Source: Spirochaetia bacterium
GTDB taxonomy: Bacteria > Spirochaetota > Spirochaetia > SP-2023
Assembly: GCA_965225855.1 (NCBI GenBank)
Contig: CBDDCK010000001.1
Location: forward strand, 128,001-192,000
Reading direction: 5' to 3'
DNA: 64,000 nucleotides
Shown: one piece after another, positions 27,001-36,000 of the stretch
How positions within the stretch are numbered: position 1 is the first letter of the stretch
Layout of the letters: each line of letters starts with the position of its first letter
Position numbers: made by a program

Positions 27001-30000
27001 AAGTACCAGAACCAGCTTTACCGTCAATCTTAGCCGTAAACGTACCATCGGAAAAAAATTCAAATTTATCTGTACCGCCACTTGCCTGCCATATACCGGC
27101 AGCTTGCAGGGTATCTTTTAACTTGAACAACAAATTGGATTCCTCATCAATTTCACAAGAAAACAACATGGGTGTCAGAAGAAAAAAACTTACAATCAAT
27201 TTTATTTTATTCATAAAAACTCCTTTTAAGACCAGAATCTTACGCCAAGCTCTGGAAAAATGGCAAATGGTACCATGAGAAAAGTTGCATTGTAAAGCTC
27301 GTTCCCAGCTTTACTCTCTAAAGAAATAGTTTCCATCTGAATACCGAAGGCAATCTGCACTTGAGCAAATACTTCAAGCCGTTGTATTTTCAGAGAAATT
27401 CCCGGCCCCAAACGAAAAAAACTTAGTAAATGGAGAAAATCATAATTGCTTTTACCTCGGCCTAGAGCAAAATCAAAGTACAGCCCAGCTACACCGTAAA
27501 ACCCTATGGGCAGACCCGCTGGGGTAAATTTATAGCCCGCATCAACTGAAATAAACGGACGAATAGGAAAATCGGGAATAATATTATCTTTTCCCGAGCC
27601 CGCCATAATTCCCAAATTTAAAGCGGTTAAAAGACCACTGAGCGCAAAAGCACCGGTAAAGCCGACACCCGGCGCATAGTGCACAATATCCTTTTCATCA
27701 AATTTAAAACCCTTTACTGGCGGACTGATTTTATCTAGGGCTTTATTTTCTACTTTTAGAATATTGTACAAGCTAGCTAGAGGTAGGTAGCTACTATACA
27801 TCAAACCACCTCCGTAACTTTGGGCTACCAAGCTCACTTGAGAAATAGTAAATAAAAAACAACTTAGACTAAATGCGAGTAACCATCTCTTTCTAAAAAA
27901 TCTTATCATTAGTCAAATTCTCCTTTCCGCATCAAATTGCTTGCAACAAGCAATTTTTGGATTGTTACGTTTTTCTTTTGATATGTCTAGCCTATTGTAA
28001 TATTTTCAAAAAATAATTTAGAGATTTTGTGAAAAAACACTTGACAATAAAAATCCATTGTATTATTGTCGTGTCAATCCTTGGGGTGGTTTCAAACCTG
28101 AGAGTAAACCCATTGAACCTGATCCAGATTGTACTGGCGTAGGGAAGGATCATTAGCGGGTATATTGATTGTTGACCTGTTAATTTTCTGCCGATCGGCT
28201 GACTCGAATGACTTGGCAGAATTTTCCAACCGTATTCTAGTATTTTGTGTTTGCCTCATATTACTTTTGTGGCTGCCGTTCCGAGGAAATTAAATAAGGT
28301 TTTTCTTTGGGGCCATTTATGGAGACAAAACCAAGTAATGCTGAATGTAATATCAGCTTTAGTATCAGTCCGGAATTAGCGGTGTATAACCGCCTCGAAT
28401 CTTGGTGCATTGTAGATTGTGTTCTGAAATATATTCAGAGTACCGGAACCTCTTATTTTACGGGACCTTCCGAAACCACTTTAGAAGGCTCTTTGAATGA
28501 ATTACTGGCAATCGTTGCCGGTGCCAATCGCATATGTATTGAACAGGGTGCCCTGGAAGTTATTTCTAACTTAAAAATTTATTATAGCCCACAAGAACAA
28601 CATTCTTTTGCCGAACGTCTACAGCGCACGGAAATACACCGCACCCAATAAAAAATAGAGAGAATAACAAGTGCAAAAAGATTCTGCTATATCTGTTTTT
28701 TCGTATTTTAGTTTCTTCAGGTTTCTAATTATATGAGCATCACTTCCGCTATTATTGTGAAAATTTTCAAATTGAGGTTCCGGTGGGAATTACAAGCGAT
28801 TCAAAAATTATTCTTACGTTTTGGTGCTTCGGCGGCTTTGCTTCTACTGTTATTTTTGGTCTGGGAGTTCAGCGTACGTTTTTGGGAGTTGCCACGCTAT
28901 ATTTTACCTAGCCCGAGTGCCGTTTATTGGTTGTTCTTGGAAGAAGATATTCGCACTCTACTATGGCAGCATACACGCATTACATTATGGGAGACAGGCT
29001 GGGGCCTATTTAGTTCTGTGAATTTTGCCATTTTGCTATGTTTGCTCATGGAGCGTTTTGACTTTTTATACCGCAGTATATTCCCGCTATTGGTACTTTC
29101 GCAGAGCTTGCCTAGCATTGTAATCGCCCCTTTACTGATGATTGTGCTGGGTTTTGGTATGACCACCAAAATTACGGTGATCACCTTGTACTGTTTTTTC
29201 CCGATTGCTACCAGTTTCAGCAATGGCTTGCGCAGTCTCGAACCCGATTATCGCACCTTATTACGTAGTTTTGGTGCCGGTTTTTGGCAAATTATGTGGA
29301 AAGTTCAGTTTCGTTGGGCATTGCCTAGTTTTTTTTCCGGCTTAAAAATTGCGGCAACATACAGTGTTTCTGCTGCAGTTTTGTCCGAGTTTTTTGGTTC
29401 TAGTAAAGGTTTGGGGATTTATATGCGCAATGCTTTTTCTAGCTCGCGTACCGATGTCCTGTTCCTCATAGCCTTTATTATTGTATTTAGCAGTATTTGC
29501 TTGGTAACGTTGGTCAATTTGGCGGAACGGCTGTTATGCCGTCATCAATTAGATTTCATTCGAGATCGAAATAAAAATGTATAAAATTTATTAAGGTATT
29601 TTCCCTTAAAAAAAGATTTATAAGGAGGTTTCTATGAAACTTAAAAAATATTTTCGTGCTGTTGGGCAGGCTATTACAGTGTTGTTGTTGAGCTTTGTAC
29701 TGGTAGCTTGTGCTAAAAAAAGTAATGGTGCTCAAGGCGAAAATTCCAGCCAAGAATTAGGCAAGGTAAAGGAATTAGAAAAAATAATTTTCTCTTTGGA
29801 TTGGACACCCAACACCAATCATACGGGTTTGTATGTAGCCCAAAAATTTGGCTACTTTAGCGATGCCGAGCTAAGTGTAGAATTTGTAATGCCGGAACAT
29901 AGCGTAGCGAAATTGGTGGCCAGCGGCCGGGCGGATTTTGGTATTCGGTCGCAGCATGTAATTACTTTTGATATTGCCAATGAAGACATACCGTTAGTTT

Positions 30001-33000: not shown

Positions 33001-36000
33001 GTTGGAGCAGGAACTCGTGTTGCGTTCTGCCCGTTATTTGGCACCGTATTATTTAGATAAAAATGGCCAATGGGGCTATCAGAAGCCAGAAGTATGGGAC
33101 CGTTTATCCCGCTGGATGTATGAGCGGCAATTAATAGAGCAGCCGCTTGCATCGGCACAAGCCATGACCAATGAGCTATTGTCCCATTAATGTCTGAAAA
33201 TTCTGGCTTTGTTTTAGAATTACGGCAATTATATAAGTCTTTTGGCAGCTTAGAGGTAATTCGGAATTTAGATTTACAGCTGCCACACAATCAAATTTTG
33301 GCTTTAATTGGCCCCTCTGGTTGTGGTAAGTCGACTTTATTAAATTTAATTAGCGGCTTAGACAAAAAATATAACGGCCAAATTTTTCTTTCTGGTTGCG
33401 AATTGCGCCAAAGTACGGCCCAACAGGTTGGCTATATGCTGCAAAAAGACTTGCTATTGCCCTGGCGCAATATTGAACAAAATGTATTTTTGCCCCAAGA
33501 ATTACACCACTTAAAAACCTGCTCGCAACCAGAAATTGAAAAATTATTTACTTTATTTGGTCTCGAACAATTCCGCAAAGCCTACCCCCAAGAACTTAGC
33601 GGTGGCATGCGCCAACGCACAAATTTATTGCGCACTTATACCCTACAATCCGAACTTCTCTTACTCGATGAACCCTTTGGCTCACTTGACGCCCTAACTA
33701 GGCAATCTTTGCAATATTGGTTCATCGAAATGAACCGCAAACAGCCGCGCAGCATTTTGCTAATCACACACGATATTCAGGAAGCTATTTTACTGGCCGA
33801 TGATATACTGGTACTTTCGCCACGCTCCTGCCAAATTTTAGCTCGCTTTACCGTCAAAGGGATTAGCCGCAGCGAAAAGTTGGAAAAAGAAATTTTTTCC
33901 TACCTAGTTTAGTTCTCTTGCCCCGGCACACGAAAAAGATAAAAATGTTTTTTTCCTGCTTTCAGCAAAATCTTTCGATCCTCGAGATCATTGTAATTTA
34001 TTTTTTGTTCGGTGTCGGTGATTTTTTGACCATTGATACTGGCTCCCCCTCCCTGAATTAAACGTCGTACTTCGTTGCGAGACGAGCCCAGCCCAGCTTC
34101 TATATAAAGCTCGATAACCGAAATGCCATTAGTTTTCAATTCAAGCAATAAAGCAGGGGCTAACTCGCTGCCAGGCAAATTATCTATGCCGTTACTACCT
34201 GCCCCACCGTTTGCAACTTTACTAGCAAAATTTTGTTGAGCTGCAACCCGCACTTTTTCCGCTTCCGCATAACCATAAATATAGCAACACATTTCATACG
34301 CTAAAATTTCTTTCGCCTTATTTAAAGCAGCCCCTCCTTCAAGGCAAAGCGTGCGAATTTTGGCAATGCTAAGAAAAGTAAAAAGCAGCAAAAATCGCTC
34401 TACATCTTGGTCGCTACAATTGCGCCAATATTGGAAAAAATCAAAAGGAGAAGTCAATTTAGGGTCAATGAAAATAGCTCCATTCTCGGTTTTGCCCATT
34501 TTTTTCCCGCTGGAAGTCATTACCAAAGGCACCGTTAAAACTTGAGGTTGACTTTCCATATTGACACTATCGTGAGAAAAATTGTAGCGGCGAATCAAGT
34601 CAAGGCCCGAAACCATATTGCCCCACTGGTCATCACCACCAATTTGCAACAGACAATCATGCTGTTGAAATAGCTTGAGATAGTCGTAAGACTGCAGAAG
34701 CTGGTAATTAAATTCGATAAATGAAAGGCCACGCTCTAAGCGTTGTTTACAGCTTTCAAAACTAAGCATGCGATTGACCGAAAAATGAAAGCCTATATCG
34801 CGCAAAAATTCAATATAATTTAAATTATCTAGCCAATCAATATTGTCCAGCCAAATGGGTTTGGTATCGCAATCGGCAAAAACTTGCTCCAACTGTTTGC
34901 GAATAGCTTGCGCATTGGTTGCAATATCCTCTGCGCTAAGCATTTTACGCATCTTTGTCTTGCCAGAAGGGTCGCCAATTTTGGCAGTGCCAGAGCCTAA
35001 GACAAGCAAAGGTTGATGGCCGGCAAAAGCAAATCGTTTTGCCAATAAAACGGGTAATAGATGGCCACAATGCAATGATGGATAGGTTGGGTCTATGCCC
35101 AAATAAAAAGGCAGGCCATATTCAAGCATTTGGTTCACAGCCTCTAAATTACTACACTGCTGGATTAAGCCACGTTGTTGCAGTTCATCAATCAATTCGG
35201 TCATGAAATGGCTAAACCTTGTTGTTTTTTGCATTTTATATTGTTAAGATGCCGATCAGATTCGAACTGATGAATAGCGGATTTGCAGTCCACCGCCTTA
35301 ACCACTTGGCCACGGCACCAATTTAATAGTTGAAAATAATGATAATAAAGATTTTTGCCCAGTACTTCATCGTAGTTTTCTCGATATTTCACCCAGAATA
35401 CTCTGTTTTTCGATTGCCAATTGATCGCCAAGCAACAAGCAAAATTCTCGAATATATTGCTTCCATAATTCCAGTATTCTTGCAGGAGTTAAAGGAGCAT
35501 ATTCTGGATTATTATAATCTTGCATATACTGAAAATGAGGGATTAAAGAATTGAATTTAAGATAATATTGGCTATCGGCAATAGACACTTCTATTGCAGG
35601 GAGCCCCTGTCTAGTAAATTCCTGAAATTTTTTCATCGTTTGTTCGATTAAATAACAAATTTCCTTGTCAATTCCCATCAAAGTAGAAGTGTATTCTTCC
35701 TTAGACCCTTCTGCCCGTTGTTCAACCCTCATTAATATTTCTTTTATCTTTTTATCAATGAGATGTTCCGGCTGTAAATGTTGTTCGATAATATCAAGTT
35801 TTACACGGCAGTGATCGACTCCACTGAGAAATTCTGTAATTTCACCATAGACATAATTATTCCAATTAAACAAAATTTTGCTTAGCATATTTAATGGTTT
35901 GAGAATATTCTTAATGCAAAAATAACGCAGGAAATTCTGCAAATAACTAAATGATTTACAATGAGCAAAAAGCTCTTCTAATCTATTTTCTTCATGATTA

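Follow-up and report, generated by a model that had tools for sequence, protein, structure and literature searches.

Analysis of a 64,000-nucleotide stretch of a Spirochaetia bacterium genome (the window) placed a 2OG-Fe(II) oxygenase gene, g00131, within an operon for vitamin B1 (thiamine) import, and homologous loci in four phyla, most of them from marine bacteria, supported the earlier proposal that this kind of oxygenase is functionally tied to B1 uptake. The protein family and its motifs, the operon and the insert within it, the partner transporters, and the B1 pathway genes missing from carrier genomes are established by observation, and the substrate is likely an intact thiamine analogue. 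Our leading, if tentative, interpretation is that g00131 takes a complete thiamine derivative brought in from outside and turns it back into free thiamine, in place of the HMP-precursor synthesis proposed in the first-pass annotation.

The operon was headed by a TPP riboswitch, as first annotated, and a genome-wide scan identified no other (Table 1). Re-deriving the gene order on the + strand (Thiamine_BP, permease, NMT1, oxygenase, YkoF, NMT1, ABC ATPase) gave the same placement of g00131 amid two ThiY/NMT1 genes and YkoF. Sigma70-like sites occurred at chance frequency (19 found versus 20 expected), so that position is the sole support for the promoter match, and the leader between the riboswitch and the first gene folded no better than chance (z = -1.5).

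Table 1. Features of the riboswitch-headed thiamine operon (positions within the window)
Feature	Position	Strand	Remark
Sigma70-like promoter match, 10/12	28041-28069	+	Just 5' of riboswitch; consensus match only
TPP riboswitch aptamer (RF00059)	28072-28162	+	75.2 bits (gathering score 54.3); aligned over model positions 1-105
Thiamine_BP (MTH1187-type) thiamine-binding protein	28319-28651	+	Upstream TTG at 28307
ThiX-type ABC permease (BPD_transp_1)	28733-29584	+	
thiY1, extra NMT1/ThiY binding lipoprotein	29634-30674	+	Insert gene 1
g00131, ANS/IPNS-type 2OG-Fe(II) oxygenase	30700-31446	+	Insert gene 2
YkoF-family thiamine-binding protein	31514-32140	+	Insert gene 3
thiY2, resident NMT1/ThiY binding lipoprotein	32171-33190	+	Orthologue of congeners' single ThiY
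ThiZ-type ABC ATPase	33190-33912	+	

Judging from comparison with congeners, thiY1, g00131 and YkoF came into a resident thiamine-ABC operon as one three-gene insert. The product of thiY2 was 61-63% identical to the single ThiY of congeners versus only 51-53% for thiY1, in which otherwise conserved motifs were changed; YkoF was not found in any congener (0/3); and the GC content of g00131 was 36%, versus 41-43% for neighboring genes. By its sequence, thiY1 is an extra, pocket-altered ThiY. Its nearest solved relative was 4NMY (E = 1e-76), a structure with thiamin bound according to PMC10586155, with the FAMP binder 3IX1 far behind (3e-30). The window operon encoded an ABC importer and neither PnuC nor Omr1, and PnuC was not found anywhere in the genome; the insert supplies a further ABC binding protein, one that can act in import only.

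The g00131 product has 248 amino acids from an ATG at 30700, or 252 if translation starts at a GTG at 30688. The previous statement that it lacks any Pfam or NCBIfam hit held for the protein itself (best match DIOX_N, E = 0.09, below cut-off) but not for its family, of which 114/120 members matched PF03171, the window protein not among them. Many relatives are named “2OG-Fe(II) oxygenase family protein” in NCBI/UniRef; the family is thus already annotated, and only its role is undescribed. His150, Asp152, His201, and Arg213 were invariant in all 120 aligned proteins, upholding the HxD...H triad and Arg reported earlier from 26. Likewise, the motif for the 2OG C5-carboxylate was near universal (Y133 and R213 in 120/120, the RxS serine in 117/120), with Gly215 instead of the serine in the window protein. 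Counting that serine, the window copy differed at 9/61 near-invariant columns (family median, 0); it is the most drifted family member and may be weak or inactive as an enzyme. Profile matches in the PDB, 4XAE (1e-10) and others, spanned almost the full length. The family nevertheless stood apart as a bacterial clade of its own: 52 representatives had E ≤ 1e-30, and a gap followed. An FDGYSxxGQxDSxNQ block is invariant in the clade and peculiar to it. An ESM Atlas search with the oxygenase returned generic PF03171 clusters only. No characterized member of the clade was found, and no such enzyme was described in the literature searched, where coverage was thin for subscription journals and RegPrecise; the tables supplementing the oarX study could affect how new it is.

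Based on profile-based gene detection, TPP riboswitches accompanied 40/75 homologous loci and none was found in the other 35; control scans gave 0 matches in reversed sequences and, for the motif scan, 0 in 225 shuffles. The former tally of 8/34, in which most Flavobacteriia loci had none, was an undercount: the Flavobacteriia variant, recovered in 5/5 loci by E-value search, scores 38-46 bits and had been missed because this falls below the Rfam cut-off (a false-negative 0/13 for Bacteroidota loci at gathering score). The PnuC neighborhood, earlier counted at 44/57 foreign loci, became stronger, with an adjacent PnuC in 62/75 genome loci and 34/38 metagenome loci, and the NMT1-ABC operon layout was repeated in four Chloroflexota loci rather than two. 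The oxygenase was found with an Omr1-type TonB receptor in Bacteroidota, with a separate TonB cluster in Gammaproteobacteria, with a second PnuC clade under a TPP riboswitch in Oceanisphaera, and beside a ThiXYZ importer in Chloroflexota and the window; by repeated arrival, the gene has thus come together with four or more kinds of thiamine importer that are unrelated to one another. Thiamine pyrophosphokinase (TPK) was absent from the recurring neighbor clusters scanned, and an APH-like gene beside Azophilus loci, considered as a thiamine kinase, was rejected as an SrkA-type protein kinase. Cultured carriers exist in Seonamhaeicola, Algibacter, Maribacter, and Seongchinamella, and the enzyme is a soluble protein of some 250 residues.

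These separate arrivals in TPP operons speak against the improbable alternative that the oxygenase-PnuC pair deals with some small molecule other than thiamine, such as a nucleoside or a different vitamin, and merely hitchhikes there, as does the lack of FMN, NAD, or other riboswitches in 25 loci scanned with all of Rfam at gathering score. Such a cargo would fit the 24/75 loci in which the oxygenase and PnuC stood as a pair on their own, away from any TonB gene or riboswitch, the 4 Francisellaceae loci without any transporter, and the transport of nicotinamide riboside and riboflavin by PnuC-family members (PMC5749112). Gene orientation bears on a different and very unlikely option, namely, that the enzyme acts on thiamine itself in excess, by catabolism or modification, and is expressed opposite to the starvation transcript. 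Among the 75 loci, TPP riboswitch, TonB receptor, and Pnu carrier occurred together in 17 tandem, 18 inverted, and 1 other arrangement. The oxygenase was antisense to the riboswitch transcript in 18/40 riboswitch loci, and in 18 loci it lay antisense between TonB and PnuC, an arrangement (median stop-to-TonB-stop gap, 20 bp, n = 17; start-to-PnuC-start, 38 bp, n = 28) in which its expression could anticorrelate with that transcript. Against this, it was codirectional behind the riboswitch in 22 foreign loci and the window, and destroying thiamine under starvation would be counterproductive for strict auxotrophs.

The carrier paired with the oxygenase was itself distinctive. In a quick rather than a careful tree, 59 of the 61 PnuCs adjoining the oxygenase fell within one clade (SH-aLRT 99). 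This dedicated clade occurred in only 12/301 Flavobacteriaceae, including all 10 oxygenase carriers and 2 genomes without the oxygenase, and a PnuC-family gene was already resident in 100/101 genomes of the Flavobacteriaceae comparison. Its members retained the WxxWxxxN motif but differed in TM3 residues, and they had Glu/Tyr at positions that are Asp/Asn in other PnuCs. From these sequences, the oxygenase's partner looks like an extra importer. Distances between PnuCs correlated with those between oxygenases (r = 0.83, n = 58), a tracking that is also expected from joint inheritance. The closest PnuC outside the clade was that of a plain omr1-pnuT-TPK carrier (L217/L082), so the dedicated PnuC may simply carry thiamine.

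Use of HMP requires ThiD and ThiE (or ThiN). Full-length ThiD was found in 10/51 carrier genomes and was lacking in 41, including the window's genome; ThiE was above cut-off in 18/51, ThiD and ThiE occurred together in 10/51, and a true TenA was present in 4/51. All three were missing from 9/9 single-chromosome carriers, and ThiN from the five tested. The window's genome had TPK only, with no ThiD, ThiE, or ThiN found, and TPK was encoded anywhere in the genome in only 19/51 carriers. ThiG matches in 5 genomes were rejected as partial TIM-barrel noise. ThiD loss was not enriched in carriers over background (1/10 versus 64/301). To carriers missing ThiD, ThiE, and TenA, HMP would be useless, which weighs against the proposal that a thymine-7-hydroxylase (T7H)-like enzyme provides HMP for resynthesis from 4-amino-2,5-dimethylpyrimidine or some comparable product of thiamine breakdown. 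The 10 carriers with both genes and a shared structural superfamily are compatible with that step, but T7H was only the 15th-ranked PDB sequence match (E = 2e-5, C-terminal half alone), and two of three key T7H residues were absent. In the motif register, with the numbering of PMC4787775, the position of Arg190 (which T7H needs to bind 2OG and its substrate) was Ser129 in 120/120, and that of Tyr217 (an aromatic lid on the base) was Val in 112, Ile in 6, and Ala in 2. The stacking residue Phe292 did correspond to F219 in 120/120, yet this column is also Phe in ANS and F6'H1, and F219 is therefore not diagnostic for T7H. Moreover, oarX, a candidate for precursor salvage, always co-occurs with ThiE (87/87 genomes; PMC11223231). 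Taken together, these results leave the T7H-like step highly unlikely.

Instead, since carriers mostly lack the genes to join B1 halves, the enzyme likely repairs (or destroys) a whole altered B1. In the repair scheme that we tentatively favor, low TPP would open the riboswitch, and the extra importer part (ThiY1 here, the dedicated PnuC clade elsewhere) would admit a modified thiamine, possibly one with an alkyl or hydroxyalkyl group added on N, O, S, or C2 or with a reduced thiazole ring. With Fe, 2OG, and O2, the added group would be hydroxylated and leave as an aldehyde or acid; alternatively, the oxygenase might desaturate the reduced ring. YkoF or a cytoplasmic NMT1 protein could then hold the thiamine until a pyrophosphokinase traps it. 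Listed thiamine damage products include thiamin acetic acid and oxo-thiamin (PMC11223231); being oxidized, these would need reduction, and repair by an oxygenase thus requires some other vitamer. The 35/75 loci without a detected riboswitch, the 18/40 antisense layouts, the 2/12 PnuC-clade genomes lacking the oxygenase, the drift of the window copy, and the missing enrichment of ThiD loss in carriers also count against repair.

Destruction would dispense with any unknown compound and is likewise compatible with genomes lacking ThiD and ThiE: toxic whole-thiamine analogues entering via thiamine carriers might be removed by O-demethylation of 2'-methoxythiamine or by hydroxylation of the bridging CH2, which would split oxy- or oxo-thiamine; the products may leave through the paired PnuC. 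PnuT moves oxythiamine and pyrithiamine and works in both directions (PMC5749112), and a freshwater study describes cyanobacterial release of methoxythiamin, most toxic to auxotrophs (PMC12345177). O-demethylases (T6ODM, 9VGI) also ranked among the best PDB sequence matches, but these plant matches were generic (E = 1e-7 to 1e-6). Importing a toxin makes little sense, so the ABC importers of the window and the four Chloroflexota loci, along with the binding protein added by the window insert, count against destruction, which we consider rather unlikely.

Extending the repair reading, it is conceivable, if doubtful, that an unrecognized intact B1 congener (alkylated or reduced thiamine) exists in seawater or marine hosts and that strict B1 auxotrophs in four phyla exploit it through a mobile module of two parts, a retuned importer and a 2OG oxygenase that restores thiamine, the oxygenase occupying the usual place of the kinase beside Pnu carriers. 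A flavin monooxygenase that is unrelated to this oxygenase and paired with a different PnuC clade may have taken up the same function by convergence; a close copy of that cassette was found in 0/52 carriers, a comparison too low-powered to count as mutual exclusion.

Known B1 salvage reuses the pyrimidine or thiazole half and requires ThiD/ThiE. The oxygenase family occurs largely in genomes unable to use the halves, and any true activity would therefore be a new step on the whole vitamin, either congener repair or antivitamin destruction. Either, if true, would alter the list of B1 compounds for marine surveys and the view of what “intact-B1 auxotrophs” live on, and would imply that the sea contains a B1 form not yet recognized. 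Detoxification routes for B1 are described as even less known than salvage (PMC11223231). As a by-product, default annotation misses the TPP riboswitches of Flavobacteriia, which lie below the Rfam cut-off.

Parts of this system resemble several known ones. With ANS/IPNS-type oxygenases (PF03171; F6'H1 4XAE, ANS, thebaine 6-O-demethylase 5O7Y, Shewanella 3ON7), the family shares NxYP, HxD...H, and, in 117/120 members, RxS motifs, but it forms a separate bacterial clade with the FDGYSxxGQxDSxNQ block and a link to thiamine importers. Neurospora thymine-7-hydroxylase (5C3P; PMC4787775) is similar in superfamily, metal triad, and equivalents of Tyr194, Arg286, Ser288, and Phe292 but differs at Arg190 (Ser), Tyr217 (Val), Asn294 (Ile/Leu), and Leu192 (Asn). 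The ThiXYZ/YlmB/TenA salvage of FAMP (3IX1; PMC10470507) likewise places an enzyme gene in one operon with an NMT1-type ABC importer under TPP control, whereas most carriers here lack TenA, ThiD, and ThiE and the binding proteins are nearer 4NMY than 3IX1. The orphan thiamine-salvage genes oarX-fmnO (PMC11223231) are likewise redox enzymes behind TPP riboswitches but have other folds, and ThiE, present in all oarX genomes, is missing from most carriers. Finally, omr1-pnuT-(tnr3/TPK) operons (PMC5749112) share the TPP riboswitch, TonB receptor, and Pnu carrier with a cytoplasmic enzyme; here, by contrast, the paired enzyme is an oxygenase rather than a kinase, and its carrier is a further PnuC paralogue, additional to the resident one.

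A TPP riboswitch (75.2 bits), the only one found in a scan of this 94% complete genome, heads seven co-directional genes encoding, in order, Thiamine_BP, an ABC permease (thiX), an NMT1 protein (thiY1), the 2OG-Fe(II) oxygenase g00131, YkoF, a second NMT1 protein (thiY2) and an ABC ATPase (thiZ). The company of g00131 (two NMT1 proteins and YkoF, in a TPP-riboswitch operon) and its lack of any Pfam or NCBIfam match above cut-off had been reported in the first-pass annotation and were recovered here. The thiZ stop lies in a 4-base overlap with a co-directional tRNA-synthetase-like gene, tyrosyl-type as judged from its sequence by eye; next comes a tRNA encoded on the other strand.

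Operons of three same-genus genomes run TPP riboswitch, (ThiBP), thiX, thiY, thiZ; since all three lack the oxygenase and YkoF and have a single ThiY, the thiY1-oxygenase-ykoF segment has been inserted between thiX and thiY2. The congeners' ThiY has its orthologue in ThiY2 (61-63%); the second copy, ThiY1, has diverged (51-53%) and differs in motifs kept by other ThiY (FGIxFQE to FGIRSQH), which would line the binding pocket. Among solved structures the nearest match to ThiY1 is 4NMY, thiamin-bound according to excerpts of PMC10586155 (E 1e-76, versus 3e-30 for the FAMP binder 3IX1). The GC content of the oxygenase gene is 36% versus 41-43% in its neighbors, and in a tree its product forms a long branch within those of Bacteroidota. 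Most of the insert is covered, with 216 differences, by a related-strain contig from another study (X6), which rules out an assembly artefact. At window position 31353, within the oxygenase gene, that contig shows a gap of one base that may be compensated nearby among 15 indels of unlisted position.

Features of the window operon and of loci in other genomes (plain coordinates, window; L-numbers, loci elsewhere)
Feature	Position or loci	Detail
TPP riboswitch	28072-28162	
thiY1	29634-30674	
g00131	30700-31446 (+)	ATG start; 248 aa
thiY2	32171-33190	
tRNA-synthetase-like gene	33909-35319	
TPP>TonB>oxygenase>PnuC		17 of 75 loci; 5 include NMT1 without signal peptide; 2 further loci truncated at contig ends
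Oxygenase inverted between TPP>TonB and PnuC	L057:5321-9027 and 17 similar loci	18 of 75 loci; Halieaceae, Azophilus, Cytophagia; antisense, almost no spacers
Oxygenase>PnuC alone		14 of 75 loci
Divergent oxygenase/PnuC pair alone		10 of 75 loci
TPP>thiX>thiY>thiZ>oxygenase		4 of 75 loci; Chloroflexota
Second PnuC clade upstream of oxygenase		2 of 75 loci; one under TPP
TonB remnant		1 of 75 loci
No such context		7 of 75 loci; 4 Francisellaceae, 3 at contig ends
Flavobacteriia TPP riboswitches	L002:3254-3345, L006:3551-3639, L012:3585-3676, L013:3467-3596, L020:3587-3677	
NMT1/THI5-like protein ending Maribacter operons	L013:7333-8235, L017, L042, L044, L072	No signal peptide
TPP, separate PnuC clade and flavin-monooxygenase-like gene	L083:486-2323, L085, L090, L097	
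Stand-alone NadR-type kinase domain (AAA_28)	L012:414-1570	Beside resident PnuC, Thiamine_BP and TPP-TonB unit

Homologues of g00131 numbered 175 at E<=1e-3. Among the best 120 of these, which were aligned, 114 matched PF03171 and many were already named 2OG-Fe(II) oxygenase in NCBI/UniRef; the H150-D152-H201 iron triad, R213 and Y133 were invariant, extending to 120 what had been noted for the triad and Arg in 26. The family forms a discrete clade in a full-library profile search (52 representatives at E<=1e-30; full-length outsiders at or below ~96 bits). Drift is greatest in the window protein and its 87% relative, which depart from 9 and 10 of 61 near-invariant columns (median 0) and have lost the serine of RxS as well as YLxLF at the C-terminus; such changes may signal altered specificity or decay of the window copy. 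The gene appears split or truncated at L074 and at L075 (Salibacteraceae).

In our profile-based survey of 75 GTDB loci, PnuC adjoined the oxygenase in 62 (and in 34/38 metagenome loci; the earlier count was 44 of 57 foreign loci); the repeat of the NMT1-ABC operon in Chloroflexota was confirmed, at four loci rather than two. At four loci of environmental Francisellaceae (L025, L026, L037 and L074) the oxygenase persists with neither a transporter nor a riboswitch beside it. The Maribacter NMT1/THI5-like protein is probably cytoplasmic, since it has no signal peptide, and may fill the role that YkoF has in the window. Because the TonB of the Flavobacteriaceae loci is a near-universal receptor (60/61 genomes) with a TPP riboswitch upstream in 29/30 loci, the cassette was an addition to an ordinary thiamine operon. 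TPP riboswitches were found at 40/75 loci and not at the other 35 by a scan whose profile was built from these same loci; independent support came from Rfam gathering-score matches in 10/12 loci and Rfam E-value matches in 5/5 Flavobacteriia loci, and no motif match occurred in 225 shuffles or in reversed loci. The association proposed in the first-pass annotation therefore holds, its 8/34 being an undercount. Most Flavobacteriia loci had earlier shown no such element within 4 kb; theirs, altered in the P4/P5 region, score 38-46 bits against an Rfam cut-off of 54.3, so default scans miss them. In 4/5 carrier genomes (those with a homologue) scanned whole, the sole riboswitch heads the oxygenase locus.

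The inverted layout resembles a non-contiguous operon: stops overlap by up to 31 bp, and the median distance is 20 bp from stop to stop (n=17) and 38 bp from start to start (n=28; starts called automatically). Being antisense to the riboswitch transcript, the oxygenase is not simply TPP-repressed at these 18 loci, and its expression could run opposite to that transcript. That the enzyme acts on excess thiamine strikes us as improbable.

In a quick tree, 59/61 adjacent PnuCs fell in one clade (SH-aLRT 99). Among 301 Flavobacteriaceae, 10 had the oxygenase and 12 the partner clade, including all 10; in one of the remaining two, PnuC lies directly behind the TonB gene. Since 100/101 sampled genomes have some PnuC, the partner is an extra carrier. 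It keeps WxxWxxxN (role described in excerpts of PMC5749112), Glu and Tyr/Phe replacing the Asp and Asn of other PnuCs, and its nearest outside relative is a carrier of the omr1-pnuT-TPK type. Distances in the oxygenase family are correlated with those in PnuC (r=0.83, n=58), for which joint inheritance alone can suffice.

HMP is of use only with ThiD and ThiE/ThiN, by the established pathway (PMC11223231, PMC10470507, both in excerpt). We searched 51 carriers (the window genome and 50 genomes from the 75 loci, picked for long contigs and spread), many of them MAGs of unstated completeness, and found full-length ThiD in 10, ThiE above cut-off in 18, with strong matches in 15, and a true TenA in 4; all three were absent from 9/9 single-chromosome carriers. 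Non-orthologous enzymes may stand in for those not found. The window genome has TPK and, at 94% completeness, no ThiC, ThiG, ThiM, ThiD, ThiE, ThiN, TenA or ThiL. ThiD loss was not enriched in carriers (ThiD in 1/10 versus 64/301 Flavobacteriaceae). Even so, an HMP-making enzyme would be pointless in most carriers. Thymine-7-hydroxylase (T7H) ranked 15th among PDB sequence matches, and by motif register in the best 120 of 175 homologues its Arg190 is Ser in all 120 and its Tyr217 is Val/Ile/Ala, the Phe292 equivalent being kept (residue roles from excerpts of PMC4787775). The enzyme is not a T7H; the T7H-like conversion of a methylpyrimidine to HMP first proposed is not supported, and HMP synthesis is the least probable of the functions considered. 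Three closed genomes (G002, G008 and G038) have ThiL and lack TPK, ThiD and ThiE, and therefore need a thiamine kinase of another kind; the AAA_28 protein is a candidate thiamine kinase.

Enzymes of the 2OG-Fe(II) class hydroxylate, dealkylate or desaturate. Since members of the family have come to lie with thiamine importers time and again, in cells able to use only whole thiamine, their substrate should be a whole thiamine-like molecule. We tentatively favor repair, in which the oxygenase would convert an imported compound of this kind to thiamine, because its constant partner is an added import part (a PnuC paralogue or, in the window genome, where no PnuC was found, a second ABC binding protein). 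Against repair, the thiamine damage products named in excerpts of PMC11223231 are already oxidised, so the vitamer repaired would be new. Detoxification of thiamine analogues, a less likely but serious alternative, could rest on compounds already known: oxythiamine and pyrithiamine enter through PnuT (PMC5749112, in part), and methoxythiamin is natural, in freshwater (PMC12345177, in part). A substrate unrelated to thiamine seems unlikely.

We found no published 2OG oxygenase in thiamine operons in a search of the main texts of papers, few of them from subscription journals, and the word dioxygenase does not occur in the excerpts of PMC11223231. At four loci in non-carrier Flavobacteriaceae, a TPP riboswitch and a PnuC of another clade precede a 340-aa protein with an acyl-CoA-dehydrogenase fold that resembles HsaA/XiaF-type flavin monooxygenases; no close copy was detected in 52 oxygenase carriers, a comparison of low power, and convergence with the 2OG oxygenase cassette is possible. 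Plant ANS-type enzymes and 3ON7 come closest in sequence to the g00131 family. Both its superfamily and its operon type are known, the clade is new, and the step inferred for it is so far undescribed.
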